The position numbers and the translations under genes are program-made. The notes under the pieces were generated by a model. That model was given only the letters and a program-made list of their open reading frames with translations, ran no database searches and was not told where the DNA came from. A stretch of DNA of 42,745 nucleotides from a virus: IMG/VR virus record IMGVR_UViG_3300019849_000002, positions 1-42,745 of that record; one strand, given 5' to 3'. Shown in pieces: positions 523 to 42,600 of the stretch (position 1 is the stretch's first letter; each line of letters begins with the position of its first letter).

Positions 523-538
523 TCCCCTCTGCCGGGGA
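523..538. repeat. PAL16 copy (sTCCCY-N6-RGGGAs)
   Basis: tcccc-tctgcc-gggga; intergenic, abuts stop of 539..1282(-). Confidence 0.9.
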
Positions 539-1282
539 TTACTTACGGGCGCGACCGCGACCTTTTTTCGGCTCTGGTGTAGGCTCGTCTACTGGTGCTG
601 GTTCACTTTCAGCATCTTCAATCTCCTCGATAATATCATCAATATGATGACCATCAGCAAGAGCTTCAATATGCTTGTTGTCCAGCCAAGCTACAACCTC
701 AAACACAGGTTTAAAGTTTTTATAGCCTTGGCTTTCAAATTGTTCTGTTTTCAGCACAAGCGCAGGCCAGCAAGCAACACCCTGTTGAGCGCGCTCAGAG
801 AATTCTCCCATCAGTTCAGCCATAGCAGAGACACCGCTAATAGAATTGATTTTGAGATATCCTTGTTGCCCGTCATCTTCTGTAGAGCGCATAACCCAAG
901 CTTTAGCCTGAAACCATCCATCTCCTTTAGCAGCATCAAAAGGCCCTAGCTCATCAGGCTCAGGCTGTGAAATAGGGGCGTTTTTGTAAATGTTAGCCAT
1001 ACGAGACGATGGAGACTTACCCCCTTTCCAGCATACCCAACCTTCTTCAAAAGATGTTACATCAACAACCCAAATCTCGTCAGTCCCAATCTCTCGGCGA
1101 TTATCCCCTTGACCAATGAAATAACGGCCCTGTTTACCTGAAAAATTCATGTAATCAGAACCGTTAGGGGCTGAGCCTCGTGGATTGTTGTCTCCTGCGC
1201 TCTTAGCTTTTGCTGCAAGTGCCGCCATATCCTTGACGTCAATAGCACCACCAAATACGCTAGTACTTACTTCATTTGACAT
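539..1282 (-). CDS. Hypothetical early protein (247 aa)
   Basis: Long track ORF in the replication/recombination block with an acidic-then-basic C-terminal tail (..EPKKGRGRARK). No family recognised; an ssDNA-binding role is only a positional guess. Confidence 0.8.
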   Translation of the reverse strand: MSNEVSTSVFGGAIDVKDMAALAAKAKSAGDNNPRGSAPNGSDYMNFSGKQGRYFIGQGDNRREIGTDEIWVVDVTSFEEGWVCWKGGKSPSSRMANIYKNAPISQPEPDELGPFDAAKGDGWFQAKAWVMRSTEDDGQQGYLKINSISGVSAMAELMGEFSERAQQGVACWPALVLKTEQFESQGYKNFKPVFEVVAWLDNKHIEALADGHHIDDIIEEIEDAESEPAPVDEPTPEPKKGRGRARK

Positions 1283-1378
1283 TTCTCGTTCCTCGTTTCT
1301 CTTTAAGGTGGAGGCTTTAAAGGCGGTGCCTCCTGCCGCCAGTCGTTCCCGTGGTGATCGTTGGTTGACCAGACCAAC

Positions 1379-1394
1379 TCCCTGATGTTGGGGA
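1379..1394. repeat. PAL16 copy
   Basis: tccct-gatgtt-gggga; intergenic, 96 nt upstream of ATG 1282. Confidence 0.9.
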
Positions 1395-1556
1395 TTACTT
1401 CATAGCTACCTCCGTTTGAAAAAGTTCTTTGTTGGAATGGCAGCATATCTAGCCGCCATTACCTTTTTTGGTATTGGGCGTTTATCGAATATTCTGTAAG
1501 CGTAAGCATCATCAGTCATACGCTGACAGTAAGAAACAATTATTGCCCAATTTATG

Positions 1557-1784
1557 TCACGCACCGCTGATTTCTTTCTCGAAAGTAACCAGCAACTCTT
1601 TTGCTTTATACGCGATTTCATAATCTTCAAGCAGCAAGGGAATACCTTGATCATGCTTTTTCAAGATTTCGTCGATCACCAACTTGAGACCTTTAGCGCA
1701 TAGTGCTCTGTCTCTTTTGGTCAGGTTTTTCATGCCGCTCATCTTTTTCTCCGCAACATCTGGATACCAGCTTGTATCAGGCAT
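1557..1784 (-). CDS. Hypothetical protein (75 aa)
   Basis: ATG 1784 is preceded on the sense strand by PAL16 arm CAGGGAGT acting as SD (7-nt gap). Confidence 0.7.
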   Translation of the reverse strand: MPDTSWYPDVAEKKMSGMKNLTKRDRALCAKGLKLVIDEILKKHDQGIPLLLEDYEIAYKAKELLVTFEKEISGA

Positions 1785-1995: not shown

Positions 1996-2312
1996 TAGAG
2001 AGTGTTCACAGCTTTGACTGCAAAGCGAGTTGAAGGAGCACCAACTTTCTTGTATTGGTCCATAACTTCTTCTCCCATGTCTGCAATCATGCGCTTAGTG
2101 TCATAAGTGACACGTCCAGCAACTGCAGTTACAGAGAATGAGTAGCCATTGTGGATAATGTCGCCTTTGCCTTCAAGCATTGGACGTAGTACTGTATCAA
2201 GCTCTTTGATACGACCTTCAATACGCTTCTTTGATTGTGTCAACTCTGCGCGCTCATCCATGAGCGTTTTCAAGTTATCCAAAGAGGCGTTTGCTTGCGA
2301 GTTCTGTGTCAT
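1995..2312 (-). CDS. Hypothetical coiled-coil protein (105 aa)
   Basis: Track ORF with SD AAGGA ~10 nt before ATG 2312. It follows the Cas4-like nuclease gene. Confidence 0.7.
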   Translation of the reverse strand: MTQNSQANASLDNLKTLMDERAELTQSKKRIEGRIKELDTVLRPMLEGKGDIIHNGYSFSVTAVAGRVTYDTKRMIADMGEEVMDQYKKVGAPSTRFAVKAVNTL

Positions 2313-3054
2313 CGTTTCTCAGTCCTTTACTTTCTCTTACTATCATACTACATGCCGCTGTATGCGCGCAGTAGTCACACCCTTTATCCATAAACATGCC
2401 TTCGGCTTTTAGGTCGGCAGGGCTAGCCGCTTCCATGATCCGATTTGCTTTTTCTTCTAGCCTTGTGGCATGATCAGCATCGAACGGAACACGAAACTCT
2501 TGTATTTTCTTATAGTTGCTTGCGTCAACATAGATTAAAAAGCTATCACCAGCTTCTAGTTCATAGTGATGAGCCATTAAATCTGTGTTCTGTATAGTCT
2601 GGTCTATGTGGTTAAGCCTAGGCAAACGGGTAACGTTTGTTCTAGGATCAATGCTCTTAATCTCTAACGCTCCAATAGTTGCTTTTCTAAAGATAGCTCC
2701 ATCAGGAGTGCCGCTTTGATTGTCAGCAGTAAAAGAAACCTGATTAATTCCTGTGTGTCTTAACTCTCCAGCCTTCTTATTCCATCCTTTATTCAGAAGA
2801 TCAATAACCCAAGACTCTACATTGTGCCCTCTTTCAAAGTAGCCCCAATCATCATTTGGATTAACTGTTGTCCCTACTTCTGGGGAGTACCCACTTGCTA
2901 CCAATGCTAATTTATCAAACTTAATCTTGCGAGAACATTGGCCTATCTCAGAGGCGGTAACATATTTAGAACGATCTAATGCCTGACCTGTAATTATAGG
3001 CCATTGCTGAGGCTCTTTGAGCCCATAACCCTTATAGATCATTTCTCTAATCAT
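2275..3054 (-). CDS. Cas4/RecB-like PD-(D/E)XK exonuclease with 4-Cys (Fe-S) cluster
   Basis: Start moved to ATG 3054 (MIREMIYKG). The extra N-terminal codons of track ORF 2275..3141 read through the palindrome whose arm AAGGGAG lies 6 nt before this ATG. Motifs are TPDGAI...ALEIKS (D..ExK) and Cys at GQCSRK plus CDYCAHTAAC (C-x2-C-x5-C). Confidence 0.8.
   Translation of the reverse strand: MIREMIYKGYGLKEPQQWPIITGQALDRSKYVTASEIGQCSRKIKFDKLALVASGYSPEVGTTVNPNDDWGYFERGHNVESWVIDLLNKGWNKKAGELRHTGINQVSFTADNQSGTPDGAIFRKATIGALEIKSIDPRTNVTRLPRLNHIDQTIQNTDLMAHHYELEAGDSFLIYVDASNYKKIQEFRVPFDADHATRLEEKANRIMEAASPADLKAEGMFMDKGCDYCAHTAACSMIVRESKGLRNDDTELASKRLFG
2871..2886. repeat. PAL16 copy
   Basis: tccct-acttct-gggga; inside the nuclease CDS (codes SPEVGT). 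Confidence 0.9.
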
Positions 3055-3060
3055 GGCCAC

Positions 3061-3077
3061 TCCCTTAAAAAAGGGGA
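3061..3077. repeat. PAL16 spacing variant (7-nt spacer)
   Basis: tccct-taaaaaa-gggga; 6 nt upstream of ATG 3054. Confidence 0.75.
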
Positions 3078-3131
3078 CGAAACCGGAGCCTCGCCCCCAA
3101 GTGCTGTGAACTTCCCGCTTGGGATAACTAT

Positions 3132-3177
3132 ATGTTATCATATAGTTAATACGGTGTCAAGTCTTAATTTGCTCTAG
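3132..3177 (-). promoter_or_regulatory. Sigma70-like promoter with conserved upstream box (leftward)
   Basis: Sense strand reads CTAGAGCAAATT-aagac-TTGACA-17 nt-TAACAT. Plus-strand coordinates: box 3166..3177, -35 at 3155..3160, -10 at 3132..3137. A 10-bp hairpin 3125..3148 overlaps the -10. The box and its spacing match the promoter at 9943..9988. Confidence 0.5.
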
Positions 3178-3455
3178 TGCAAAGTTTTTGACTTAACTGT
3201 TCTTTCTTCTGTCTTGTAGTTGTTAGGATTAGCTATAATAGTAGTTGCTTTGTCTATAACTCTCGCCATAACATCAGCTAGAGTTACAGTGCTTCTTATG
3301 TTTGTATTAGCTATTAAGTTCATAGTCAGCAACACAAGCATGTTTTCTATAGTACAAGCAGCACATATTCTGTGTTTTTCTGCACCATCAATTAAGGCCG
3401 TCATGGCTTCATTGACAACTTTGTCGATTTTTTCTTGGTCGTGTTCATCAGTCAT
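3174..3455 (-). CDS. Hypothetical protein (93 aa)
   Basis: Track ORF with an ATGA overlap onto the SNF2 gene stop. Confidence 0.7.
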   Translation of the reverse strand: MTDEHDQEKIDKVVNEAMTALIDGAEKHRICAACTIENMLVLLTMNLIANTNIRSTVTLADVMARVIDKATTIIANPNNYKTEERTVKSKTLH

Positions 3456-4750
3456 TGATTTATTCTCCTGTCAGACTGTTGCTTTCTTAATCTTACGTTA
3501 TTTAAACCCATATCAAGTTTATTGTTACTTAATATAACGTCTACTTGACATGATCTAGTTTGTCCAAAGCGATAGACACGCTTGTAGAATTGCTCAATGG
3601 TAGCTGGTGAAGGGTGAGTTTCTGCTACTATAACTTGTCTAGCAGCCTCTTGAATGTTCCAGCTAACTCCCATCTTTTTCATTTGCCCTATGAGCACGTC
3701 TATTTGTCCATTGTTAAACTTACGTCTAATAGGCGTAAGCTCATTATCAGCAGTACCGCCATGCACTTGTTGTGTTGTTAAGCCCTCTCTACTAAGTGCG
3801 TCTTCATAAGCTTGCATAACATCTCTGTGCCAGCAACCTAACAACAATGGGCCATTCATAGCACACTCCCTAACGTAAGGGACTGTCTCAGATACTTTTG
3901 CCAAACCTACAATCCGCCAAACTTTGGCCCCTATGCTATCAGGATCGCCTAGTGTTCTAAGTAGCTCTGCTATGTCAAGTCTGTCAATAGTTTTTGCTAC
4001 TTCTCTTTCAAGCTTAATATCTACTACAAGGTTGCGCATCAACAGATCAGGCAAGCCCGGCGCTTCAAGTCTTCTAATAGCTCCTATGTCTTCATAGATA
4101 ATCCTGTTTAGCAACATCTCATTCATGTTGCCTTTGACCACCCATTTAGGCTGCATTCTAGGATTATACTGTACTTTGCGTTTGAAGCAAAAATTGCGCT
4201 CAAAGTCTGCATAGTCGTATACTCCATGGGCCTCAAATTCGTCAGGATGCAGAACTCCCACTTGCGTCCACATATCGTTTGCGTAGTTTTGCATCGGAGT
4301 ACCACTTAAAAGCCAAGCAGTATCGAAACATGAAACAAGACCTCCAGCACCATCAAATACGTTACCAAACATAGCAGCACTGCGCCCACTTGTAACAGAA
4401 GCGACAAGGTGACTTTCATCCAATACAGCAAATCCTTTACTGAAATACTCATAAAGCTCAGTTCTCCTGTTTCTAGCAACGTCATAAGTCATAACGTGTA
4501 TGTCAGCACCTAGCTTAGTTTTACCAGAACGTATAACTTTAACGTCTGCACCTAATTCATTCTCAGCCTGTTCTTTCCACCAATCAAGAGCAATCTTAGG
4601 AGCGAACACAACACCGCTATTAAGGCGGGATTTTTTGATAGCTAGTAGTGTAGTAAGAGTTTTTCCTGTCCCTGCCTTAGAGAAATTAGGAAGGTCAGGA
4701 GTATCAGCCATTTTCTGACTGTCCTCTTCTTGCTCTCTAGTTGGTTTCAT
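3452..4750 (-). CDS. SNF2/DEAH-type helicase
   Basis: 432 aa. Motifs are Walker A AGTGKT, VLDESH, LLSGTPMQN and helicase-C motif YRFGQTRSCQVD. Confidence 0.85.
   Translation of the reverse strand: MKPTREQEEDSQKMADTPDLPNFSKAGTGKTLTTLLAIKKSRLNSGVVFAPKIALDWWKEQAENELGADVKVIRSGKTKLGADIHVMTYDVARNRRTELYEYFSKGFAVLDESHLVASVTSGRSAAMFGNVFDGAGGLVSCFDTAWLLSGTPMQNYANDMWTQVGVLHPDEFEAHGVYDYADFERNFCFKRKVQYNPRMQPKWVVKGNMNEMLLNRIIYEDIGAIRRLEAPGLPDLLMRNLVVDIKLEREVAKTIDRLDIAELLRTLGDPDSIGAKVWRIVGLAKVSETVPYVRECAMNGPLLLGCWHRDVMQAYEDALSREGLTTQQVHGGTADNELTPIRRKFNNGQIDVLIGQMKKMGVSWNIQEAARQVIVAETHPSPATIEQFYKRVYRFGQTRSCQVDVILSNNKLDMGLNNVRLRKQQSDRRINQ
3867..3882. repeat. PAL16 copy
   Basis: tccct-aacgta-aggga; inside the SNF2 CDS (VPYVRE). 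Confidence 0.9.
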
Positions 4751-4831: not shown

Positions 4832-5101
4832 TTACAACAAAACTCCTTGGTCCCCATTATCAGGGAGTTGATTAGTATCAAGCAAGAAAGCTTCTTCATA
4901 GTAACTTGCCTTATCTACAACATCATGCATATTTGAACTACACAAAAACGTACCCTTTTCATCTATGCCGTAATAAACTTTTCGCATATAGCACTCTTCT
5001 AATGTCTCCATCACTAAGGCAGCAAAATCTCCGCTGTTCGGTACCCCAGCAGCATGAAGTACTGACTCTATTTTTTGTTCTGGTGTCGTATCTCTACTCA
5101 T
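4832..5101 (-). CDS. Hypothetical protein (89 aa)
   Basis: ATG 5101 is preceded by PAL16 arm CAGGGAGT (8-nt gap). Confidence 0.7.
   Translation of the reverse strand: MSRDTTPEQKIESVLHAAGVPNSGDFAALVMETLEECYMRKVYYGIDEKGTFLCSSNMHDVVDKASYYEEAFLLDTNQLPDNGDQGVLL
4851..4866. repeat. PAL16 copy
   Basis: tcccc-attatc-aggga; 3' end of CDS 4832..5101 (LPDNGD). Confidence 0.9.
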
Positions 5102-5298
5102 TTGTCTACTCCCTGACGAAAGGGACTTACTCTTTTTATGTCAGAAGTCCACAAACTGACAACTTCGGCCCCTACTTTCACGTATGCTATAGTCTTTAGT
5201 GGACTATAAGCTACTAGCTCCCCCTTCACTCTTATTGGGTTTATGTAGTTTAAAGTACCTGCTACTTTTGCACCAATCTTAATCACCATTTCCTCCAT
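5098..5298 (-). CDS. Hypothetical protein (~66 aa; start 5298 or 5289)
   Basis: Track ORF 5098..5403 is probably over-extended. Its upstream part overlaps, in another frame, a better membrane ORF (5283..5450). MEEMVIKIG has GGAGGA nearby. Confidence 0.5.
   Translation of the reverse strand: MEEMVIKIGAKVAGTLNYINPIRVKGELVAYSPLKTIAYVKVGAEVVSLWTSDIKRVSPFRQGVDK
5110..5125. repeat. PAL16 copy
   Basis: tccct-gacgaa-aggga; last codons of 5098..5298, 8 nt upstream of ATG 5101. Confidence 0.9.
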
Positions 5299-5450
5299 AC
5301 TGCATCTAGCAGCATCCATATCAGATAGCTTATGATCACGGTCATAAAACCGAACAGAAAAGATAAAAAACCACTTTGAGATGCAGTTAAGCCTGCCATG
5401 CACCCTATAACTCCAGCTACTATTATAGCTATAAAAACTGGATAGTTCAT
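5283..5450 (-). CDS. Small membrane protein (55 aa, two hydrophobic helices), below the ORF-track size cut-off
   Basis: Hand translation gives MNYPVFIAIIVAGVIGCMAGLTASQSGFLSFLFGFMTVIISYLIWMLLDAVWRKW. Its ATG overlaps the upstream TAA (TAATG). Confidence 0.55.
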   Translation of the reverse strand: MNYPVFIAIIVAGVIGCMAGLTASQSGFLSFLFGFMTVIISYLIWMLLDAVWRKW

Positions 5451-5998
5451 TATTCTACTACCTCTTTACTACATGCTACTACTTCTAGATTTTGTGCGTC
5501 TGTTTGCTTGTTTATGTAGTCAACAGCATCTTTTTGACTAAAAAAGAACAGCGCCTGTTCTCTATCTTTAGTAAGTACTAATCCTACTTCTGCATGATAC
5601 TCATTCTGTACTACGTTATAGATATAATAGATACTGACAAGTTTGCGTTTCTCTAAAACTTCTTTTCCATCCTGTTTATCTTCATAATCCTCACCAGCAA
5701 ATTCGCCAGCAGCAGCAAAGTAACAAGCGCCGTCGATATAGTTATCAAAGTGTGGTTTTTCACTCTGAAAAGTGCGTACCATCTTATGAATAACCATAAA
5801 GAAAGCTGCGTCTTGTGCAGTTAACAGTCCTTCCGCAATGTCAGATACATCTTCACCTTTATTACCATATTTAGCAACAAGGTAAGCATTAAACATGTCA
5901 GCAGTATCGCTCATGTTCTGATAAAAAGAACCGTAATCTTCTTGTCTAGTCCCTTCCGTTAGGGAGATAGCTTTCTTCATCATTTCTACACGGTTCAT
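5450..5998 (-). CDS. Hypothetical protein, N-terminal DUF6378-like pattern
   Basis: 182-aa track ORF. TRQEDYGSF ... HKMVRT recalls the DUF6378 helical domain. The function call is weak. Confidence 0.7.
   Translation of the reverse strand: MNRVEMMKKAISLTEGTRQEDYGSFYQNMSDTADMFNAYLVAKYGNKGEDVSDIAEGLLTAQDAAFFMVIHKMVRTFQSEKPHFDNYIDGACYFAAAGEFAGEDYEDKQDGKEVLEKRKLVSIYYIYNVVQNEYHAEVGLVLTKDREQALFFFSQKDAVDYINKQTDAQNLEVVACSKEVVE
5950..5965. repeat. PAL16 copy
   Basis: tccct-tccgtt-aggga; inside CDS 5450..5998 (SLTEGT). Confidence 0.9.
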
Positions 5999-6369: not shown

Positions 6370-6585
6370 TCAATTTCCTTTCTCGTCTAATAAGCCTAAC
6401 TGTAACAGTGTTCTGCACTGTTCAGAAAAGCATAGATCATTCTTCTCTGCTAGATCGTTGATTTCTTCTAGTAACTCTACATCAATAGCGATACCTATGT
6501 GACGCAGTTCTTTATTTTTGTAGATGCCTCTGCCGCCTACACGTTTTACAAAGCGAACGTTTCTAGACACTTTTAGGGCGCCCAT
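6370..6585 (-). CDS. Ribbon-helix-helix (CopG/Arc-like) DNA-binding protein candidate
   Basis: 71 aa. RHIGIAIDVELLEEINDLAEKNDLCFSEQCRTLLQLGL fits a beta-strand/helix/helix RHH layout. Confidence 0.55.
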   Translation of the reverse strand: MGALKVSRNVRFVKRVGGRGIYKNKELRHIGIAIDVELLEEINDLAEKNDLCFSEQCRTLLQLGLLDEKGN

Positions 6586-6817
6586 TACGTACAGTAGCTA
6601 TAAACTCTACTTCATATTCTAAAGTACGGTAACGAGCATTGCAGTTCAAACATACACGGCTTCTCAACACCGCCTTATCTTTTGTGTCCTTGTGTTGTAC
6701 AAGCCTAGTGTCGGTTGTTTTGAAGGCAGTGCCTCCACACTTGTCACAAGTTAAAAACTGAGACGTGTTACTCCCTTTTACTGGGGAGTATCCGAAGTAC
6801 TCCCTAATGTTATCCAT
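6563..6817 (-). CDS. NrdR-like zinc-ribbon protein lacking an ATP-cone
   Basis: CDKCGG..DTRLV..RSRVCLNCNARYRTLEYE parallels NrdR CPFC..DSRLV..RRRRQCLVCNERFTTFE. Start set at ATG 6817, which overlaps the upstream TAA (ATGGATAA), rather than track start 6850. Confidence 0.6.
   Translation of the reverse strand: MDNIREYFGYSPVKGSNTSQFLTCDKCGGTAFKTTDTRLVQHKDTKDKAVLRSRVCLNCNARYRTLEYEVEFIATVRNGRPKSV
6772..6787. repeat. PAL16 copy
   Basis: tccct-tttact-gggga, with longer arms tactccct/ggggagta; inside the NrdR-like CDS. Confidence 0.9.
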
Positions 6818-7340
6818 CTCTAACACCGAACACTGTACCATCGTCAACATCAGTTTGCGTGACGTAAAACTTAATCAGACGCCAGTAAGCGCAAACGAGG
6901 TTGTTTGACGTAACCATCTTAGCGTAAAGAATGACTGCATTTGACGGCTCTTTTTTGCCTGTCAATGCTGCCTGCGCAGAACGTCGCTTGTTCATAGCAA
7001 TGTCTGCCTGTTCCTTACACCAATTAATTTGTCTCTTGATATGCGTAGGAGTGTCGTGACGCATCTCATACAATTTTCTCTGCTCAGGAGCGGTAACAAG
7101 CTTTGTCATGTTGAGTTGTGAAATTTCGTACATAACAGAAGGTGAGGTACGCTTGTCAAAAGCTTGCTTCAACAGGCGGTCAAACTTTCTTACCTCTAGC
7201 TCCGCTAGTACTAGCTCGCGATCTTCATCATGAACAAGTGATCCAATTTGCCTAAAGCCTAGATCCGTCCATTTCGCTCTGTTGGCTTTACGGTAATGGC
7301 CGTGTGGCTGTGAGCCAGTTGGGTTTAATCCTACTCTCAT
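6810..7340 (-). CDS. Hypothetical protein (176 aa), basic
   Basis: Track ORF with an ATGA overlap onto the upstream small ORF. Confidence 0.75.
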   Translation of the reverse strand: MRVGLNPTGSQPHGHYRKANRAKWTDLGFRQIGSLVHDEDRELVLAELEVRKFDRLLKQAFDKRTSPSVMYEISQLNMTKLVTAPEQRKLYEMRHDTPTHIKRQINWCKEQADIAMNKRRSAQAALTGKKEPSNAVILYAKMVTSNNLVCAYWRLIKFYVTQTDVDDGTVFGVRDG

Positions 7341-8769: not shown

Positions 8770-8785
8770 TCCCTAGCTCTGGGGA
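8770..8785. repeat. PAL16 copy
   Basis: tccct-agctct-gggga; overlaps the 3' end of 8773..9528, 8 nt upstream of ATG 8761. Confidence 0.9.
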
Positions 8786-9898: not shown

Positions 9899-9906
9899 CT
9901 CAGTAT

Positions 9907-9922: not shown

Positions 9923-9942
9923 CAACCCCTGTTCACATACTA

Positions 9943-11909: not shown

Positions 11910-11915
11910 CTAGCT

Positions 11916-35103: not shown

Positions 35104-37156
35104 AGAAGAAGCAGCAGCAAGACGCCAACGTATCATAGAAAGCTCTATGGATGTTACTGGTCCTGTAATAGACGCAGCCACTCAAGATCAAGCTCCTGCA
35201 CAAGTCCCTGAGAGTAGGGAGATGGGGATTGCTGATTTCTTACTGCAAGGAGGTTATGAAGCACTTAAAACGTTGCCTCCCTTTGACCTGATAGATACTC
35301 TAGGTGACATGGCTCAAATGGGAGGTAGCAGCACTGAGGCAGGATTGTCTACAATGGCTGATTGGGCCAGTTACGGTACTGCTGATAGTATGGCTGCTCT
35401 AGATGCCTCAGTAGAAGCTCTTCTAACTGGTGCTGATCCTGTAGAAGCTTACACCACTACCCAAGAAGCAGTCAATCAAAATCTTCAAGAGAATAGAGAA
35501 GAGTTTAAAACAGCTACAACTATTGGGGACATTGCCGGAGCTATTGCAGGTGGCGGACCCGGAATTAAAGCTATAACAAAAGTGCCTACTATGATAGGCC
35601 GTCTATTTGTAGGCTCCCTAGGAGCAGGGAGTCAAGCTGGCCTATACGCTATCAATAGCGACGGAAGCGCTCAAGAGATTAAGGATGACGTAGGAGCAGC
35701 AATGTTTGGTTCTGCTCTTTTGGGCGGTGCCGGTATGGCCGCTGGTGGCATAGGCCGCGTAATCAACAACAAATTTGGTGTAGGCAATTACGCTTACGAG
35801 GCTGGACAAGAGCTTATTAAGGCTGTTAAGAACAAAGTAGACTTAGGAGTAACTGATGAGGCAATGCGCCTCAGAGAAGCCAAAGAAATACTTAAGAACA
35901 CAAACGACCCAAGAACAGTACTCGTTGATGCTTATCCAGAGCTAAGAGACTACATTCCTAGGGTCATGAACGCTCCAGATAATCCGGGACAGCGACAGTT
36001 TCTTGACTTACTTAAACATAGAAACATGGTAGAAGATGACTTTTCTACCGCCATTACTGATGTAGTCAATATGCCTAGGCTGCGCAGTAAAGAAGAGTTT
36101 TCAGCATTTATTGAGCAAAGACAAGCTGCTATTCGTCCTAAATACGACGATTTGTTTGACGGTCTTGAGCAAAGAAACGTTTCAGCTATGCCTAAGCGCA
36201 TATTAGGAACTGCTAAACGTATTGCTAGCTCTCGTGATGACGCTGATACTAGTTACATGAGAGACGCTATAACTCGCCTCCAAAAAGCTTTAAGTAAAGG
36301 CAGTAGAAAAGACGAGACAGGAAGAAACCTAAATAGAATCTCTGCTAGAGAGCTACACAATATTCGTAGGACGCTAAGCAAAGGTTACACCACTAAAAAA
36401 GGTGCTTACAAAGTCCCTACTCGTGGGGACAAGTTAATGGCAGATATATTATCAGAAACTATAAACAGCATGGACCCAAATTATGGTAAGTTAGCTCGTA
36501 CCTATGCTAACACTTCCAGACAGAAAACTGCTTATGATAGAGGATATAAAATGTTCTCTTCTAAGCAAAAAGCTTCTCCTTCTGAATTTCAAGATTACCT
36601 ATCCGACGCTAGCAGTTACGCAGAAGTTACTGCGTTTACTCACGGAGTACGTCGTAAATTGTTTGAGGATATGTCTGCTTTAGACACACCTAATAAAGTT
36701 AGAAATTACATGCTTAATAACGGTAATCGTATTGAGCAACTTAGAGCAGCGTTTGGTACTCAGCAAGCTGATGCTATTGTACAGAGTGTAATCGACACTG
36801 TAGCAAGAGAAGAGACTAGACAAATAGGTAATAGGGCGGTAATGGCTGCTGTAGATTACCAACCTAATAACAATACTAGGGCAACTATAACTAACGCAGC
36901 GTTAGCTACTTTGCCCGGAGGCAATAGTCCGGCAGCTATTAGAGCTAGGTCTAGACTTATCGGAGAAGATACTATGTCTCCGGCTGCACAAGCTGCTCAG
37001 TCAGATGTTATAGGTAGAGCGCTCACTTCTCCTGTTAGAGACGCACAAGCTATTTTGCAAGAACTAGCTACTATTGGACAAAGAGGACCAACACCGCTTA
37101 CAGGAGTAGGAGCAGTTACTGCCGCTCCAATTGCGTCTACTACTGAGCCTGAGTAG
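35093..37156 (+). CDS. Large internal virion/ejection-type protein (687 aa)
   Basis: Start set at ATG 35093 (MSFREEAAARR), overlapping the upstream stop by 11 nt; track start 35030 is less likely. It is the last gene of the rightward arm. Confidence 0.7.
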   Translation: MSFREEAAARRQRIIESSMDVTGPVIDAATQDQAPAQVPESREMGIADFLLQGGYEALKTLPPFDLIDTLGDMAQMGGSSTEAGLSTMADWASYGTADSMAALDASVEALLTGADPVEAYTTTQEAVNQNLQENREEFKTATTIGDIAGAIAGGGPGIKAITKVPTMIGRLFVGSLGAGSQAGLYAINSDGSAQEIKDDVGAAMFGSALLGGAGMAAGGIGRVINNKFGVGNYAYEAGQELIKAVKNKVDLGVTDEAMRLREAKEILKNTNDPRTVLVDAYPELRDYIPRVMNAPDNPGQRQFLDLLKHRNMVEDDFSTAITDVVNMPRLRSKEEFSAFIEQRQAAIRPKYDDLFDGLEQRNVSAMPKRILGTAKRIASSRDDADTSYMRDAITRLQKALSKGSRKDETGRNLNRISARELHNIRRTLSKGYTTKKGAYKVPTRGDKLMADILSETINSMDPNYGKLARTYANTSRQKTAYDRGYKMFSSKQKASPSEFQDYLSDASSYAEVTAFTHGVRRKLFEDMSALDTPNKVRNYMLNNGNRIEQLRAAFGTQQADAIVQSVIDTVAREETRQIGNRAVMAAVDYQPNNNTRATITNAALATLPGGNSPAAIRARSRLIGEDTMSPAAQAAQSDVIGRALTSPVRDAQAILQELATIGQRGPTPLTGVGAVTAAPIASTTEPE
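35205..35220. repeat. PAL16 copy
   Basis: tccct-gagagt-aggga; coding (VPESRE). Confidence 0.9.
35615..35630. repeat. PAL16 copy
   Basis: tccct-aggagc-aggga; coding (SLGAGS). Confidence 0.9.
36414..36429. repeat. PAL16 copy
   Basis: tccct-actcgt-gggga; coding (VPTRGD). Confidence 0.9.
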
Positions 37157-39158
37157 CTCTAATCTCTAGACTATTGATCTTACCTTCATCAATGTCTAGC
37201 TTAAACAATGTATCGCCATACGCCCACGTGTGGCGATTTTTAAACAACACCGCCACTTGAGCTAATGTTTTAGTTCCTGTATAGCTAAGTCTACGGGCAG
37301 GAGCAAGCTCAATAAAGCCTTTTTCATTAAGCAAAGTGCAAACCTCATTATGACTAAAGCTCCCTACTCCTAGGGACTTAAGAGCTTCACATAATTTAGC
37401 CCACTCAGTAGCTGCTCTTGCCTCATCGCCTTTAGAAGTCATGTCTGCGGAAGAGGCCATTCGCACAACAGGCGCAGATAATCCAAAACCCTGTACTGTT
37501 CTCCCCAAGTCATAGCTTTCAAAGTTAAAGAAGTAATGTATATCCTCGTCCATTGATCTTGCACGTCCAATATACATTTTGACGGGACCTTCTTTTGTCT
37601 TGACAAGCTTGAGGACAACATCAACTTCGGCTTCAATGTTAGTCGATCCTCGAACCTGTCCTTGCTTAGATAGGTGGTGAACAAATAGGATAGTGGCAGT
37701 AACTCCATTAGAACGCAGGAAGTCAACCATTCTGAAAAGCTTTGATGTATCTTCAACGCTGTTCTGGTCTCCGGCTGGCATAGCCTTTGTGATAGTGTCA
37801 ATTACAATCAATCCCAAATCGGTGCCAAATTCTTGTTGACACTTTGCTGCATGTAAAGCGATCTTTGCGCAGTTAGCTTCTTGCTGCCCATCACTAAAGA
37901 AGTCGTGTGGTCTATCGACAACAAACATATAAGAGCGTTCTGGCACGCCCATGTTGTTTTCCCGCCTCCAACGCCGCTCTGCCTGTATGCGTAGTTCAAC
38001 TGCTCTAGCACCTTCCAGAGTGAAATATAAGACTGGGCGTCTTTCGTAAACTTTGAGTGATCCAAAATCCTCTCCATTTGCTATATTCATTGCCAGCTTA
38101 AGAGCTATAGCAGTTTTACCTACTTTTGGTTCTGCTGCGAGTAATATCGTTTCACGCTCTGCGACAAGAGGGTACATGATGTAACGTTGTTGAGTAATGT
38201 CTCGTTCTTCATCATCGAAGTACCCGCTTGATTCAAACGGCCATTCAGTGATATTGCCGTCTCCGCTAATATGTAAGCTATCTTCTGTAGCTTCTCCGTT
38301 ATCCAAACTAGAAGATTCTGGGCGTTTAAACAAGCCAGAGCTAACACTAGTAAGAGCACTATGTATAGTTTCATCAACTGTTTCACGAGCCTTCTCCGTA
38401 TGCTGATAGTGGTTAAACTTAGAATTACTACTCCCTACTAGTCGGGACAACTCTCCAGACGTGTCCTCCATGAGACTTTTCCAACGGGAATGCCTCGGAT
38501 GAGTTTCTCTAGACGCCTTCGACGCTTCAAGAAGATCAAGTAATTCTCTTTGTACACGTTCGATAGGCCAACCTTGCGCCGATCTGCGGGCAGAGATTTG
38601 TGCCAAGGGGTCATGAAACGATGTAGCATCAAGGATTTCAGATTTGAGTTTATCGATAGCGGTCTGGCTTGAACTAGCTCTTGTAGTGAGTAGGGCCTGA
38701 ACCAACTCGGGATGTGCTTGTGATATTCCACTTGTTGCGACACTGTACCCTTTTGAAGGCGGTAATATAATGTATCCACCTTCGCCCTTGACCTCAACTG
38801 AGGGGTGAGGTTTACAATTGGGTTGTGCAGTATCCGACCTATATATGAAGTGTAGGCCACCTGATTGTGTGGTATGAGTTTGTGTTTCATATAGCCATCC
38901 TTTGTCTGATAAGCTTTGCATATAAGCTTCTGCACCGGGCTTATATAAGTCGAAGTCTATCGCAAAAAGTCTACTATCTGCTCCCATGCGAGCACCTATC
39001 ATGCAGTCACCGGCTAGAGCAAACATCTGTTTAACTTGCTCTGGATCAGTAGTCGCGTCTAGATGCCCATTAGTAGTCATGGGTCTTTTGTTGAGGCTAC
39101 AAGGAAATACAGGTATTCCCTTCCTAGCCCACTTTAGAGCTTCCTCTACGATGTTCAT
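37140..39158 (-). CDS. Bifunctional primase-polymerase (prim-pol) / RecA-type helicase
   Basis: 672 aa. The N-terminus has GIPVFPCSLNKRPMTTNGHLDAT..GGYIILPPS (prim-pol). The C-terminus has Walker A AEPKVGKT and Walker B LIVIDT. Its 3' end converges on and overlaps the last rightward gene by 17 nt. Confidence 0.8.
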   Translation of the reverse strand: MNIVEEALKWARKGIPVFPCSLNKRPMTTNGHLDATTDPEQVKQMFALAGDCMIGARMGADSRLFAIDFDLYKPGAEAYMQSLSDKGWLYETQTHTTQSGGLHFIYRSDTAQPNCKPHPSVEVKGEGGYIILPPSKGYSVATSGISQAHPELVQALLTTRASSSQTAIDKLKSEILDATSFHDPLAQISARRSAQGWPIERVQRELLDLLEASKASRETHPRHSRWKSLMEDTSGELSRLVGSSNSKFNHYQHTEKARETVDETIHSALTSVSSGLFKRPESSSLDNGEATEDSLHISGDGNITEWPFESSGYFDDEERDITQQRYIMYPLVAERETILLAAEPKVGKTAIALKLAMNIANGEDFGSLKVYERRPVLYFTLEGARAVELRIQAERRWRRENNMGVPERSYMFVVDRPHDFFSDGQQEANCAKIALHAAKCQQEFGTDLGLIVIDTITKAMPAGDQNSVEDTSKLFRMVDFLRSNGVTATILFVHHLSKQGQVRGSTNIEAEVDVVLKLVKTKEGPVKMYIGRARSMDEDIHYFFNFESYDLGRTVQGFGLSAPVVRMASSADMTSKGDEARAATEWAKLCEALKSLGVGSFSHNEVCTLLNEKGFIELAPARRLSYTGTKTLAQVAVLFKNRHTWAYGDTLFKLDIDEGKINSLEIRATQAQ
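37361..37376. repeat. PAL16 copy
   Basis: tccct-actcct-aggga; inside the primase-helicase CDS. Confidence 0.9.
38432..38447. repeat. PAL16 degenerate copy
   Basis: tccct-actagt-cggga; coding. Confidence 0.5.
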
Positions 39159-39672
39159 TTTTTAATTCCCTGCATATACTCTCAGATTCTCCGAGAGATA
39201 CACCTATTGCTGCGACCTTTATTATGACCTTATTAGCTGGTCCGTATCGCACTTTAGCGTGTAGTTCACCGATTTGCTTGTCGTCGTGATAGACAACACC
39301 GTTAAGAGCATCCGTCACCGCCTTAACATAGTTGTCTAAGTCCCCACCACTAGGGATTATCCATCCGAGACTAGCCAGCACTCTTTTTTCTTTGCTGTAA
39401 GATTTAGGTACTGTCTTATAGACAAAAATAGTTACTCTAACAGTCGCAAGAAATTGCTTTTTTCCTTGCATTTTCTTCTGGGCTGCATAACGTACAGCAG
39501 CTTCATAGTCACGTGTGCGTTCTGGTGTATAAGCATGGCCAGAAGACGTATGCCTTGGCCGACCTTTGGGAATGGCGGTGATATTTAAGGAAGTCTCAAA
39601 AGGTATCTTCTCTCTTATTTTTGCTTCCCATTTTTCTAAAACTTTTTGGATAGATGTATCCGCAGTTTTCAC
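39124..39672 (-). CDS. rusA: RusA-family Holliday junction resolvase
   Basis: ITAIPKGRPRHT..YTPERTRDYE..GGDLDNYVKAVTDALNGVVYHDDKQI matches the RusA signature. The start is uncertain because of a 77-nt overlap with the upstream ORF. Confidence 0.8.
   Translation of the reverse strand: MKTADTSIQKVLEKWEAKIREKIPFETSLNITAIPKGRPRHTSSGHAYTPERTRDYEAAVRYAAQKKMQGKKQFLATVRVTIFVYKTVPKSYSKEKRVLASLGWIIPSGGDLDNYVKAVTDALNGVVYHDDKQIGELHAKVRYGPANKVIIKVAAIGVSLGESESICRELKNEHRRGSSKVG
39341..39356. repeat. PAL16 copy
   Basis: tcccc-accact-aggga; inside rusA. The 16-mer is identical to the copy at 13523. Confidence 0.9.
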
Positions 39673-40050: not shown

Positions 40051-40057
40051 TTTTATT

Positions 40058-40073
40058 TCCTTGTCGTTAGGGA
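40058..40073. repeat. PAL16 degenerate copy
   Basis: The sense strand reads TAG-TCCCT-aacgac-AAGGA. It abuts the polymerase stop, 7 nt upstream of ATG 40050. Confidence 0.5.
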
Positions 40074-41927
40074 CTACGGTTTTGCAGCCCAAGTTGTTCC
40101 TATTGCATGATCAGTGAGGTTGTCTGTACTAGTGCCGGGGAAAATATCTAGCCAGCCATCTCTCATACCTAATAGCTGTTGTGTCATAGCCGCCTCAGCG
40201 TCATCTTTATGAGCATGAGAAATCAGTTCGTCGTGTACTGTAATAGCCATAAACGCATCAAGATCATATTTGATAAATCTTTCTCTAGTGCGAATCATAG
40301 CTCTATACATTACAGAGCCAGCAGCAGCTTGAATAGGATAGTTAGCAGCAATGGGCATTGATCTATCAGCTTTATTTACATAGATAGTTCTACCGTCGCA
40401 GACAGGCAAAAAGCCATCTATCATCATCAGATCAAACATTTGCTCCCTGTAGTTATAAGCTTTAGGATAACGTTGAGCCCATAGCATAATAGCTTCTTCT
40501 GCTTCTTCAAAAGTACATTTAAGAACGTCAGACAATGCAGCAGCACCAGCACCATATAGCAACTGGAAAGTAAACCCTTTAGCTTTAGAGCGTTGTTCTT
40601 TAATAACTGGATATATATTCGCATATCCACCAGCACCTTCACTCTTAAGCACTTCTAAAACATATTCATAATCATGACCATACAATTGCGCAGCAGACGC
40701 AGAGTGTACATCGCCATAAACAGCATCTTCTAATAGTACTTCATCACCGCTTAATTCTGCTAGTACACGGATTTCGATACCTGAATAGTCTGCGAGACAG
40801 AGTAGTCTTTCTCCTGAAGGTGTAACAAACGCTCTACGTACAACAGGCTTGCGAGGTATGTTTTGGAGGTTCGACGAGGAGGAAGAAAAACGACAAGTTT
40901 TTGCGGCTGCGATATTAAAAGACGAATAAATTCGTCCTGCCAAGTTTTGCTTTGTAATGAGTGTTTCGCCGTAAGTTGACAAGTATTTTTTGTGGTACTT
41001 GTATCGAGCCAGTGCAACGAGCCAACGCGAGAAAGGATAGTTGACCCTGCGAGCGACGGAGAGTAGATATTTACTTTCAAGCTTTAACCTCTTCTTTTTA
41101 GTTGTGCGCGGCCATTTAGCAAGCAGATGCTCTGGTAGCTCATTCTCAAGAAACTTGCCTATCTGAACGTCACTTCCTAGGTTAGTAATAATCTCTTTAG
41201 GAGTAAAACGTCTAAGCACAGCTTCTGCTATCTTAAACTTTTTATCCCATACAGATACTAGTCCCCGGTGATAGGGAATATTAAGTTTAATACCTTCTGC
41301 TTCACATTCTAAAGTGGGACGAACTGCCTCATCAAATATGAAGTATGCAGCTTCCTGTTGTTCTGTTGTAGTTTCTTCTAGCCAATGGCAAACTAGCTTC
41401 CAAGTAACGTATCCATCAAAACCAGCATAGTTTATCTGGCTTTCTGTAAGCCTTGGCTGAGACCAATCGCTAGCTTGTTCTCCTTTATCTAGCTTAATAT
41501 TCAATTCTCTAGCCATCATAGCTAGACTAGCTGGACCACCGCCCATCTTTGCTTTCTTAAGAAATTGAACGTCTCTTACGTCTGTACGATCATGCCCAAA
41601 TGCATGATCTATCCATGTAATTTCAAATTTAGAATAAAAAGCGTACCATTCTATACCTTGAAAATCTTCTGCGTAATCTTCCAAAGGTCCTAAAAAATCG
41701 TGATCTATGAGAAATTGACAATCATCGTTACAGACAGAAGTAAGCCTAATTCTGCCTCCATTAGATGTTGGATAAAGGGCGGTAGTTTCAAAGTCAATAG
41801 CAGCAATACCGCTTTCTTTGACTTTAGCAAACAGCGCATGGGCTTCTTCAACTGTTTCGACAATACGACAGTTCTTAATACTCTTACGTAGTTCTTGCTC
41901 TGTTGTCTTTTCTACCACCCCCTGCAT
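40074..41927 (-). CDS. Family-A DNA polymerase with 3'-5' exonuclease domain
   Basis: 617 aa. Motifs are ExoI AIDFETT, motif A DYSGIEIRVLA, motif B RSKAKGFTFQLLYG and motif C VHDELI. Confidence 0.9.
   Translation of the reverse strand: MQGVVEKTTEQELRKSIKNCRIVETVEEAHALFAKVKESGIAAIDFETTALYPTSNGGRIRLTSVCNDDCQFLIDHDFLGPLEDYAEDFQGIEWYAFYSKFEITWIDHAFGHDRTDVRDVQFLKKAKMGGGPASLAMMARELNIKLDKGEQASDWSQPRLTESQINYAGFDGYVTWKLVCHWLEETTTEQQEAAYFIFDEAVRPTLECEAEGIKLNIPYHRGLVSVWDKKFKIAEAVLRRFTPKEIITNLGSDVQIGKFLENELPEHLLAKWPRTTKKKRLKLESKYLLSVARRVNYPFSRWLVALARYKYHKKYLSTYGETLITKQNLAGRIYSSFNIAAAKTCRFSSSSSNLQNIPRKPVVRRAFVTPSGERLLCLADYSGIEIRVLAELSGDEVLLEDAVYGDVHSASAAQLYGHDYEYVLEVLKSEGAGGYANIYPVIKEQRSKAKGFTFQLLYGAGAAALSDVLKCTFEEAEEAIMLWAQRYPKAYNYREQMFDLMMIDGFLPVCDGRTIYVNKADRSMPIAANYPIQAAAGSVMYRAMIRTRERFIKYDLDAFMAITVHDELISHAHKDDAEAAMTQQLLGMRDGWLDIFPGTSTDNLTDHAIGTTWAAKP
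41262..41277. repeat. PAL16 copy
   Basis: tcccc-ggtgat-aggga; inside the polymerase CDS. Confidence 0.9.
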
Positions 41928-42349
41928 TATGTTAACACCGCCTTCAACTGGTCAGAATAAGTCACAATGTGATCAGCCATAAGAGCCATTAGTTCTGGTT
42001 CTTCTCCATCACAAGTGTAAATAATGAGTCTCTTGCCTCTGCCTTTTGCGTAACCGCCCTCAAGGTGAGCAGACCTTCCACAAGGCAAAAGCAACACGCA
42101 AGTATCACACCACTCTAGAGCACGCATGTCAGATAAAAATCCATGAGATGCTATAGGAGTATTAAGAGCATCTACATATTCATCAGCATCCCAATTTTTC
42201 CAATTAGGATCAATGTCTGACCAAGAAAAGCCTGTCTTTCCCAGAGGGTTTCTAAAGTCATATACCAAATGACCCCAAGACTTTAAAATCTCTACCATTT
42301 CAGGCTGTTGCTCGTTTCTCCAAGAAGAAGCTAGATAAATGCGTCTCAT
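41927..42349 (-). CDS. Nucleoside 2-deoxyribosyltransferase-like protein
   Basis: 140 aa. RIYLASSWRN ... CGRSAHLEGGYAKGRGKRLIIY resembles the NDT/Rcl fold signature (IYLAGP ... DxGTxxExGyAxaxGKP). Confidence 0.6.
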   Translation of the reverse strand: MRRIYLASSWRNEQQPEMVEILKSWGHLVYDFRNPLGKTGFSWSDIDPNWKNWDADEYVDALNTPIASHGFLSDMRALEWCDTCVLLLPCGRSAHLEGGYAKGRGKRLIIYTCDGEEPELMALMADHIVTYSDQLKAVLT

Positions 42350-42600
42350 TCTTTCTTCTCCCCAGCGTCAGGGACATTCGCATTCTGTAAGGAACGATCC
42401 ACAAGGTTAAACATGTGCTGAATCCACAAGAGGGCGGTATCGAGTTGTCGCAAAGATGCGTCGCGCTCGTAACATTCTGGCATTTGGCGCAATACATCAT
42501 AGATTGTATCACTAGCCTGCCCAAGCTCTTTTCTCAGTTCCTCTAGAGAAATGTCCTGTACAGTCTCAGCTTTCTTGACTTTCTCAGTCTGTTCTTTCAT
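42346..42600 (-). CDS. Hypothetical protein (84 aa)
   Basis: Track ORF with ATGA overlaps at both ends. Its C-terminal NVPDAGEKKE is encoded by a PAL16 copy. Confidence 0.7.
   Translation of the reverse strand: MKEQTEKVKKAETVQDISLEELRKELGQASDTIYDVLRQMPECYERDASLRQLDTALLWIQHMFNLVDRSLQNANVPDAGEKKE
42359..42374. repeat. PAL16 copy
   Basis: tcccc-agcgtc-aggga; sense arm TGGGGAGA lies 9 nt upstream of ATG 42349. Confidence 0.9.

Follow-up and report, generated by a model that had tools for sequence, protein, structure and literature searches.

The window considered here, namely the whole 42,745 nucleotides of IMG/VR virus record IMGVR_UViG_3300019849_000002, carries along its entire length an interrupted palindrome, TCCC[CT]N6[AG]GGGA, that is present in approximately 56 copies (47 exact and about nine variant). 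These sites are real, conserved, selected at the level of DNA, evenly spaced, symmetric without covariation between their arms, and missing where the early module is a different one; neither composition nor coding accounts for them, and nor do RNA structure, mobile elements or host repeats. Our leading explanation, which is offered tentatively, is that the copies are duplex-DNA binding sites for a two-fold symmetric (dimeric) protein of the early or replication module of the phage, dispersed along the genome in an iteron-like manner and probably serving replication; the dimer as reader, the identity of that reader and the replication purpose are all matters that we infer.

The regular expression given above matches the window exactly 47 times, at the coordinates listed in the original prediction (an annotation of the sequence that had first described the motif and claimed a large excess of it), and that excess was confirmed, because 100 dinucleotide shuffles produced a mean of 0.04 matches and never more than one. 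The claim also survived a codon-preserving comparison: 33 of the 47 copies lie wholly within open reading frames (ORFs), while synonymous-codon shuffles that keep all proteins unchanged yielded 0.69 matches (maximum 4) and codon permutation yielded 0.05, so that the signal resides at the DNA level and codons do not account for it. The full consensus, A-S-TCCC-Y-A-n-Y-R-n-T-R-GGGA-S-T, is longer than the regular expression, with an A after the first arm in 34 copies and a T before the second in 33, the same counts as had been predicted; likewise, the two reported pairs of 16-mers that are identical including their spacers (16285 with 32703, and 13523 with 39341) were recovered. When scored with a position weight matrix, the 47 sites reached 19-28 bits and shuffled sequences at most 15 bits. 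Variant copies had been described as well, and both kinds exist, although in numbers other than those first given: five differ in spacing (one with a total length of 15 nucleotides and four with 17), and four one-mismatch copies score above all shuffles. A 22-mer that carries the motif as a duplex is CAGTCCCTATCGTTAGGGAATT. Outside the motif, the words TCCC, TCCCY, GTCCC and their like occur at Markov expectation in five full genomes (the window and four near-complete genomes of its relatives), which indicates that selection acts only on the paired arms.

The distribution of the copies along the window is far more regular than chance would provide. The coefficient of variation of the gaps between them is 0.51, as compared to 0.97 for random placement (none of 5000 simulations gave a value as low), and the largest gap is 1980 bp, where 4033 would be expected, in agreement with the earlier statement that no gap exceeds about 2 kb. 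At the same time, 22 of the 47 copies fall within 40 nucleotides of a gene boundary (7 under random placement, with a maximum of 15); ten of the 47 place RGGGA(G) 3-13 nucleotides upstream of an ORF start, and eight begin within 25 nucleotides past a stop codon. Long ORFs hold internal copies in all three reading frames, as predicted (13, 16 and 4 copies for frames 0, 1 and 2). The copies themselves are mirror-symmetric, with no orientation tied to transcription, and the mild asymmetry of their flanks on the sense strand is due to overlap with Shine-Dalgarno sequences and stop codons. Over-regular spacing was found in all five full genomes (coefficients of variation of 0.41-0.75, versus 0.91-0.97 for random placement; p < 0.04 in each), and the preference for ORF boundaries recurs in all of them. 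The picture is one of selection for approximately one copy per kilobase, located where its cost is lowest.

The individual copies in the window are given below by position; each is an exact match to the regular expression unless called a variant or one-mismatch copy, and no strand is assigned, the site being symmetric.

523-538: intergenic, abutting the stop of ORF 539-1282
1379-1394: intergenic, 11 nt past the stop of ORF 1406-1654
1792-1807: overlaps the stop of ORF 1798-1995; AGGGAG 7 nt upstream of the ATG of ORF 1557-1784
2871-2886: within the PD-(D/E)XK exonuclease gene 2275-3141
3061-3077: 17-nt spacing variant TCCCTTAAAAAAGGGGA, within the exonuclease gene
3867-3882: within the SNF2 helicase gene 3452-4750; position kept in G131, G133 and G132
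4851-4866: close to the 3' end of ORF 4832-5101
5110-5125: 3' end of ORF 5098-5403; AGGGAG 8 nt upstream of the ATG of ORF 4832-5101
5950-5965: close to the 5' end of ORF 5450-5998
6772-6787: within ORF 6563-6850
7464-7479: 3' end of ORF 7460-7675
8770-8785: overlaps the stop of ORF 8773-9528
9540-9555: 3' end of ORF 9515-9925; 11 nt upstream of the start of the DUF2786 gene 8773-9528
9907-9922: 5' end of ORF 9515-9925
10468-10483: intergenic, abutting the stop of ORF 10484-11848
11568-11583: within ORF 10484-11848 (454 aa)
11894-11909: divergent intergenic region
12093-12108: divergent intergenic region
12494-12510: 17-nt spacing variant TCCCCCCTATGGGGGGA, inside a longer hairpin at 12488-12517
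13040-13111: array of half-sites and spacing variants with a 22-bp period (GTCCCTG, TAGGGAC, a 15-nt copy at 13073-13087 and a 17-nt copy at 13095-13111)
13139-13154: intergenic, final member of the array
13357-13372: within the AT-rich intergenic stretch 13320-13400
13523-13538: intergenic; AGGGAG 10 nt upstream of the ATG of ORF 13549-13767
13787-13802: 5' end of terL (13767-15212)
14588-14603: within terL; position kept in G131, G133 and G132
15299-15314: intergenic; stem extended to 9 bp
15717-15732: one-mismatch copy TCACCGACATTAGGGA, identified by the position weight matrix
16285-16300: beta-helix protein gene (928 aa, 15922-18708)
16910-16925: beta-helix protein gene
17641-17656: one-mismatch copy, beta-helix protein gene
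17953-17968: beta-helix protein gene
19227-19242: portal gene 18705-20831; same place in at least six relatives, in another reading frame
21051-21066: ORF 20978-22051 (scaffold-like position)
21867-21882: ORF 20978-22051; 9-bp stem
23090-23105: 14 nt past the major capsid stop; 9-bp stem; position kept in L001, L131 and L132
24424-24439: 3' end of ORF 23769-24449
25826-25841: intergenic, 5 nt upstream of the ATG of ORF 25847-26566
26243-26258: within ORF 25847-26566
28109-28124: 3' end of ORF 27652-28170
28706-28721: within ORF 28541-30064
29291-29307: 17-nt spacing variant TCCCTAATTATTGGGGA, within ORF 28541-30064
29898-29913: within ORF 28541-30064
31069-31084: intergenic, abutting the stop of ORF 30064-31068; 7 nt upstream of the ATG of ORF 31092-31502
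32061-32076: 5' end of ORF 32046-32738
32703-32718: 3' end of ORF 32046-32738; the same 16-mer as at 16285
33374-33389: within ORF 32740-35103
35205-35220: within ORF 35030-37156
35615-35630: within ORF 35030-37156
36414-36429: within ORF 35030-37156
37361-37376: PrimPol-helicase gene; encodes SLGVGS (conserved LGxG motif, C-terminal domain)
38432-38447: one-mismatch copy, PrimPol-helicase gene
39341-39356: RusA gene; encodes IPSGGD leading into the catalytic GDLDN; position kept in all four full relatives
40058-40073: one-mismatch copy TCCTTGTCGTTAGGGA, identified by the position weight matrix
41262-41277: DNA polymerase A gene 40074-41927
42359-42374: 3' end of ORF 42346-42600; 9 nt upstream of the ATG of ORF 41927-42349

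The window belongs to an uncultured marine clade of at least 168 portal clusters, many of them on complete contigs of approximately 40 kb. Ten portal-centred loci from this clade (portal identity 45-65%) were read, and the four near-complete genomes were assembled from portal-centred pieces and pieces centred on the family A DNA polymerase (PolA). A search of related phages had been proposed with the original prediction, and nine of the ten portal-centred loci proved to contain a C-run/G-run interrupted palindrome, at approximately 0.4-1.4 copies per kb and in partly conserved positions. Arms, spacer and total length (15, 16 or 17 nucleotides) are specific to each genome, with arms and spacer coevolving from one genome to another, as follows.

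Window: TCCCYA-N4-TRGGGA, 16 nt
L001, L128 and L134: (T/A)CCCCAC-YA-GTGGGGA, 16 nt
G131: TCCCC-N5-GGGGA, 15 nt in 35 of 39 sites
G133: 23 sites of 15 nt and 14 of 16 nt
G132: TCCCCC-N4-GGGGGA, 37 sites of 16 nt and 14 of 15 nt
G137, L135 and L143-145: TCCCC-YA-N3-TR-GGGGA, 17 nt
L148 and L158: CCTAA-N-TTAGG

When window sites are mapped onto these genomes by way of protein alignments, they coincide with a site of the relative approximately ten times more often than site density predicts (in G131, for 5 of 14 sites versus 0.5 expected), and the positions so conserved lie in the SNF2, TerL, portal and RusA genes and just past the capsid gene. The portal site keeps its location while its reading frame changes, with no insertion or deletion (SPTVGT in the window, VPVSGD in L001). 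The conserved positions and this change of frame indicate that the element is ancient, that it is held by purifying selection with turnover, and that it is read at the level of nucleic acid. Scans of IMG/VR for the exact motif returned several copies in the contig of only one relative, while other loci with multiple matches (L036 and L115) were set aside as local tandem arrays; a metagenome scan with the portal returned two short relatives only. Across 185,579 bacterial species genomes, the perfect consensus gave 87 single matches where approximately 139 were expected, and at this chance level it is not a host-genome repeat. Two IMG/VR contigs that encode RusA and come from other phage groups contain dispersed GC-rich palindromes of their own, namely CCGTCGCG-N4-CGCGACGG (nine copies in 20 kb of L226) and GGGCGCGCASTGCGCGCCC (seven copies in 12.5 kb of L227); dispersed, phage-specific palindromes may be more widespread, beyond the clade of the window.

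Whether such a site is read as duplex DNA or as a folded strand is addressed by its variable mirror positions. Shuffling the arms among sites yields Watson-Crick complementarity at these positions at least as often as is observed, if anything slightly more often, and this is so for each of the five full genomes. In the window, the combinations T/A, C/G, T/G and C/A at Y5/R12 occur near independence, and C.A matches T.G in frequency whichever strand is considered, in keeping with earlier claims of independent variation in the inner Y/R and outer S pairs and of conservation of half-site sequence rather than complementarity. The hairpins predicted for the DNA have little stability (median -3.4 kcal/mol in the window, where approximately 40% of sites form only a 4-bp stem with an 8-nucleotide loop), although those of the relatives are stronger (mean free energies of -5.5 to -6.2 kcal/mol) and 9-bp extended stems occur at a few copies (15299, 21867 and 23090). 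A search of Rfam gave no match, and of the 26 copies that fall within the 15 kb searched for terminators, only three coincide with terminator-like patterns. The absence of covariation, the weak hairpins, the empty Rfam search and the unenriched half-sites together favour a two-fold symmetric reader of duplex DNA, and on sequence grounds such a reader is more likely than an RNA hairpin. The original preference for a dimer on duplex DNA was supported in part by these observations, whereas the variation in spacer length between genomes and within some of them (considered below) does not resemble what a rigid dimer would impose.

Several other kinds of element can be judged from the same data. A structured RNA or terminator is not indicated, as there is no covariation, no Rfam family and few T-runs. 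A repetitive extragenic palindrome (REP) or miniature palindromic mobile element is likewise not indicated, with 33 of 47 copies in ORFs, no insertion or deletion at the portal site, and weak hairpins. In none of the five full genomes is the half-site enriched or skewed alone, as it would be for an oriented single-strand motif of the Chi or primase-trinucleotide kind. The proposal that the copies function as RNA-level hairpins, by sequestering Shine-Dalgarno sequences, by stabilising mRNA 3' ends or as processing sites, draws upon the copies that stand just before start codons or just past stop codons and upon the few 9-bp stems, but it is very improbable: C.A pairs are as frequent as U.G on the sense strand, most copies are within ORFs and far from start codons, and an RNA element has no need of mirror-symmetric preferences.

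The gene content of the window frames the search for a reader. The window is a complete podophage genome with a unique length of 42,626 bp; its positions 1-119 are duplicated exactly at 42627-42745, and this end repeat indicates a complete genome in a circular or terminally redundant assembly. It encodes TerL (the large terminase subunit), a portal and a major capsid protein of SU10 type, and the beta-helix tail protein (928 aa, 15922-18708). A minus-strand early/replication block encodes a SNF2 helicase, a PD-(D/E)XK exonuclease, a conserved 247-aa protein (539-1282), PolA, RusA and a PrimPol-AAA_25 helicase fusion; two members of this block are of particular interest as readers.

37140-39158, minus strand: PrimPol-helicase (Prim-Pol plus AAA_25), the last ~100 aa of which form a variable domain of unrecognised fold and a candidate, putative motif reader
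39124-39672, minus strand: RusA-family resolvase, found in 11 of 11 motif-bearing and 0 of 8 motif-free relatives (PolA-centred loci), an alternative candidate reader or partner

RusA appears catalytically intact, as judged by its motifs (GDLDN ... DD). No near-identical DNA was found among 50,697 phage records; the nearest isolates, which infect Octadecabacter, Sulfitobacter, Ochrobactrum, Methylophilales and Sinorhizobium, have only approximately 29% portal identity, LUZ24-like phages are among the distant capsid relatives, and the sequences closest to the window come from marine and other metagenomes. No related prophage was found in the 185,579 bacterial species genomes (GTDB). Among the window proteins scanned, there was no integrase, repressor or other lysogeny gene, and no methyltransferase or recognisable nickase; PDB relatives were not found for the 454-aa, 285-aa, DUF2786 and 247-aa proteins. 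The small DNA-binding proteins that had been put forward as readers did not hold up, since the ribbon-helix-helix protein (6370-6585) and the zinc-ribbon protein (6563-6850) have no detectable homologues in motif-bearing relatives; a third candidate, of 176 aa (6810-7340), is present in only 8 of 11. Early regions of relatives also encode, beside PolA, Acb2/Tad1-like and Sequestin-like proteins (anti-CBASS/Thoeris sponges; L139 8425-8778 and 9772-9999, L140 7074-7544).

These inventories bear directly on the idea that the copies correspond to stoperator- or operator-like sites, at which a phage regulator would block or time transcription, the true operators being a cluster in the divergent intergenic region (described below). 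The copies are, as in such a system, numerous and scattered, and they are in excess near gene boundaries and in an intergenic region that bears promoters; the repressors of cluster A mycobacteriophages do bind numerous sites genome-wide (PMC9283540). We nonetheless regard it as quite unlikely, because the sites are symmetric and lack orientation with transcription (the residual flank asymmetry coming from Shine-Dalgarno and stop overlap), because neither lysogeny genes among the scanned proteins nor related prophages were found, because the small candidate regulators are not conserved, and because a transcriptional roadblock predicts no even spacing within long late genes.

A natural contrast is provided by the closest relative of the window in virion genes, the mosaic L130 (ena:ERZ25067590 ctg25150, 40,464 bp), whose portal, capsid and TerL are 65%, 78% and 77% identical to those of the window and which is nested among motif-bearing genomes. 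Its early region differs, with genes for a GTA-type holin, a clamp resembling pol III beta and a protein of the ArdC/MPTase kind. The 22 of its 40 kb that were read, which include the conserved portal and post-capsid positions, are free of the motif. As L130 shares the virion genes and lacks the motif, the sites serve no packaging or virion function, and the motif would appear, from this comparison of genomes, to depend upon the early/replication module. The early genes common to all motif-bearing full genomes are those for the 247-aa protein, exonuclease, SNF2, PolA, RusA and PrimPol-helicase.

A scan of IMG/VR with PolA resolved two clades, of which clade A (PolA 52-58% identical) has the motif and clade B (42-48%) lacks a dispersed motif. 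Clade B retains the gene order SNF2, exonuclease, 247-aa protein, PolA, X, PrimPol-helicase, in which X is RusA in all 11 members of clade A and an unrelated protein of approximately 180 aa in clade B (RusA in 0 of 8); among PolA-centred loci, RusA is thus the sole family that separates motif-bearing from motif-free relatives. The existence of the clade B replisome without dispersed sites implies that the replisome proteins do not require them. Apparent palindromes in clade B were dismissed as tandem coding repeats: GC-rich repeats with periods of 11-43 bp lie at contig ends or in ORFs (L157 1-210; L162 1940-2270; L163 1-140; L176 1-120 and 1960-2100) and mimic palindrome enrichment in simple scans. 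A TerL-based scan for the origin regions of clade B returned instead another phage group (TerL 44-48% identity), which also lacks a dispersed motif; in one locus of a distinct, abundant low-GC group (L285, TerL 44% identical), a local array of GGGTTTACCC-type repeats occupies 5259-5370, approximately 600 bp upstream of TerL.

The co-occurrence of RusA with the motif raises the question of nuclease targets, in which a RusA dimer, or a nickase like that of T5, would nick or cleave symmetrically 5' of the C-run and so create interruptions, recombination starts or resolution hot spots. LUZ24-like phages, which are distant capsid relatives of the window as noted above, carry localised nicks, and presence of RusA tracks the motif exactly in the two clades where synteny is otherwise identical. 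The RusA of Escherichia coli binds duplex DNA and cuts preferentially 5' of CC (PMC1636454), a preference with which the T-CCC arms present in every copy are compatible. However, that enzyme acts on four-way junctions and does not cut the duplex DNA that it binds (PMC1636454); a mobile Holliday junction needs no palindrome, CC dinucleotides are abundant, and the arms are too short for cruciform extrusion. RusA also failed as a sufficient predictor of the motif, since approximately 70 other viral contigs encode similarly diverged RusA homologues and have no motif. Given those contigs and the lack of duplex cutting, the link to RusA amounts to one phylogenetic contrast and serves as a lead only, and nuclease targets are an improbable account of the sites.

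The main rival to a duplex-binding dimer is a hairpin-priming element, in which the arms, exposed on the lagging-strand template, fold into a hairpin at which a primase-helicase of the archaeo-eukaryotic primase (AEP) type starts an Okazaki fragment. The RepB' primase (AEP-like) and RepA helicase of RSF1010 prime at hairpin single-strand initiation (ssi) sites on opposite strands, and the window phage encodes a Prim-Pol and AAA_25 fusion. Copies recur over-regularly at about 1 kb and never more than 2 kb apart, which is the scale of Okazaki fragments; a stem-loop would tolerate a spacer that varies within genomes while the arms stay constant; and the relatives' hairpins are stronger than those of the window. 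An element that works on both strands could, moreover, acquire mirror-symmetric preferences even at unpaired positions without covariation. Against this stand the lack of covariation, or of a G-T/C-A strand bias, at variable positions adjacent to the stem, the approximately 40% of window sites with stems of 4 bp only, and the orthologous primase-helicase of clade B, which operates without such sites; we consider hairpin priming unlikely.

Two further possibilities place the cause outside the phage replisome. The copies might be sites for a host factor, or an anti-defence device, for example as shields or decoys with respect to a nuclease or nucleoid protein of the host, with variants that track hosts. 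No phage-encoded reader has been identified, arms and spacers differ between relatives in a way that could follow hosts, and anti-defence genes occur in the corresponding early region of relatives; yet L130 shares the virion module without the motif, bacterial genomes contain the perfect consensus no more often than chance predicts, and these genomes contain no related prophage from which a host might be named, so that a host factor is decidedly improbable. That the sites have no function, and result from biased mutation or repair or from a miniature palindromic mobile element, is scarcely credible. Nothing specific speaks for it beyond the dispersed GC-rich palindromes of other phage groups, whereas the portal alignment is free of gaps across its site (so that genic sites are not insertions), positions are conserved, five genomes show over-regular spacing, half-sites show no enrichment by themselves, and no trace of the motif is left in L130, the closest relative in structural genes, over the part read.

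The divergent intergenic region of the window (11849-13548) contains approximately eight copies of the motif, and at 13040-13154 half-sites and spacing variants form an array with a 22-bp period, approximately 170 bp beyond which lies an AT-rich stretch (13320-13400). This arrangement suggests that 13040-13400, just downstream of a TerS-like gene (12580-13029), is origin-like or pac-like. Repeats of TAGTTCAAT with 22-bp spacing occupy 13113-13216, and a perfect palindrome with 14-nucleotide arms is found at 13154-13185. Upstream of the TerS-like gene (window 12359-12517), a conserved box, TAAGTCATTGAAA, precedes a long C/G hairpin (GGTCCCCCCTATGGGGGGAGGGACC in the window); box and hairpin are common to at least three relatives (including L001 at ~2340-2400 and L136 at ~3735-3800), and might serve as a late promoter or as part of a leader. 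At 11915-11973 there is an inverted repeat with 26-nucleotide arms (85% complementary), a 7-nucleotide loop and repeated GATACC(G/C)C words.

Under our leading explanation, the dimeric reader would be encoded by, or would work with, the early module (SNF2 helicase, PD-(D/E)XK exonuclease, 247-aa protein, PolA, RusA and PrimPol-helicase). Each subunit would read one arm (A-S-T-C-C-C-Y-R, mainly its G/C tract) across a flexible, Y-R-rich centre, as dimers of the lambda O protein do, and selection would hold approximately one site per 0.8-1.1 kb genome-wide, at little cost near gene boundaries and, where ORFs are long, within genes. The most likely use would be as distributed points for loading, priming or restart of a PrimPol-helicase replisome, or in organising replicating DNA. 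Other primase-helicases carry origin-binding domains, and the C-terminal ~100 aa of the PrimPol-helicase, which diverge between clades A and B, could by analogy be such a domain.

A number of observations weigh against this explanation. No reader of the motif was identified among the phage proteins. For the C-terminal domain of the PrimPol-helicase, Pfam and PDB profile searches gave nothing meaningful, a homologue search was empty, and the single-sequence structural model was unusable (predicted local distance difference test score, pLDDT, of 39.5). Clade B has the same replication synteny apart from RusA and no dispersed motif, and the contrast with L130 is a single natural experiment that covers 22 of 40 kb. 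Variation in spacer length within G133 and within G132 is unusual for a rigid dimer and is a better fit to a hairpin. The tight, iteron-like array is present in the window only, with no counterpart in relatives. Finally, no homologue of lambda O was detected among the early proteins with Pfam (Phage_rep_O) or PHROG, nor did lambda O retrieve anything by phmmer or blastp from all ORFs of 19 related genomes or loci; an hhalign comparison of the PrimPol C-terminal profile with the N-terminal domain of O gave a probability of 0.2%.

A bolder form of the proposal, which we consider possible but doubtful, is that an initiator iteron has been spread genome-wide at intervals of approximately 1 kb and written into coding sequence, such that a replisome could be loaded, primed or restarted anywhere and on either strand, with RusA acquired to debranch the intermediates. 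If true, such distributed origins or hard-wired priming would be a strategy so far undescribed for any double-stranded DNA phage. If the sites are as they appear, an abundant marine phage clade keeps a 16-20-bp recognition sequence at fixed density through its genes; selection for it constrains protein sequence, and individual sites are held across approximately 40% amino-acid divergence. The result would be a genome-scale DNA code laid over coding sequence, with an evolutionary handle in the coevolution of arms and spacer and in the loss of the motif upon a swap of the early module. The identity of the reader would reveal whether phages use dispersed initiator, primase or organiser sites in place of a single origin, and the motif offers a possible metagenome signature for the clade as well as a natural system in which to study the conflict of binding-site and coding constraints.

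No description of the motif, or of a genome-wide, evenly spaced and coding-embedded phage palindrome, was found in the literature, but the original statement that no described system has this motif was too strong, because the four iterons of the lambda replication origin (ori) correspond to TCCCY-N7-RGGGA. As taken from NC_001416 they are TCCCTCAAAACGAGGGA, TCCCCTAAAACGAGGGA, TCCCTCAAATTGGGGGA and TCCCTCAAAACAGGGGGA, three of them 17 nucleotides in length and one 18, as compared to 15-17 here. They have the same arms (TCCCY ... RGGGA) in an imperfect inverted repeat, they choose Y or R independently in each arm, and copies differ by one nucleotide in length. Origins of lambda type have three to six tandem copies at about 20-24 bp spacing next to an AT-rich unwinding region, and the short periodic array and nearby AT-rich stretch of the window recall that layout, although some 50 further copies are dispersed and relatives have no comparable array. 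Each iteron is bound by a dimer of lambda O, which touches the distal G residues in the two G-tracts and introduces a bend at the middle of the site (PMC7466680). The lambda sites differ, however, in being four copies in one origin within gene O, rather than approximately 56 genome-wide at about one per kb with two thirds in ORFs, and in their inner sequence (CAAAACG in lambda, YA-N-TR here). By analogy, lambda O provides the best mechanistic model for how the sites may be read, and this is not a claim of membership.

Among other known systems, the stoperators of cluster A mycobacteriophages similarly comprise tens of protein-binding sites across a whole genome, on both arms and enriched at gene boundaries, and those sites and their repressor coevolve between relatives (PMC9283540); unlike the symmetric interrupted palindrome described here, they are asymmetric 13-mers bound by a monomeric immunity repressor and oriented with transcription, and here no repressor or lysogeny genes were found and many sites lie deep in ORFs. 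The ssiA and ssiB sites of RSF1010 and other primase signals, among them hairpins of G4 type, resemble the present system in its combination of an AEP-type primase with an AAA_25 helicase, and in Okazaki-scale spacing on both strands, but ssi sites number one or two per replicon and act as hairpins, and primase sites of T7 type (GTC) are unpaired words of 3-5 nucleotides, in contrast to a motif with no covariation whose half-sites are unenriched. Cleavage by RusA 5' of CC recalls arms that begin with T-CCC in a lineage where an intact RusA gene co-occurs, although its substrates are four-way junctions rather than duplex palindromes (PMC1636454) and other RusA-encoding phages lack the motif. 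Bacterial chromosomes offer more distant parallels. Chi, the DNA uptake sequence (DUS) and HIP1 are short motifs that are over-represented genome-wide, including in coding DNA, and SlmA, Noc and MatP are dimeric chromosome-organising proteins with palindromic sites. The density of the phage motif is 10-100 times higher than in such systems, REP elements included; the motif is a feature of phages, found in bacterial genomes at no more than chance level, and it is neither strand-oriented, as are Chi and DUS, nor extragenic, as is REP. The closest precedents, then, differ from the motif either in symmetry (stoperators) or in distribution (lambda iterons).

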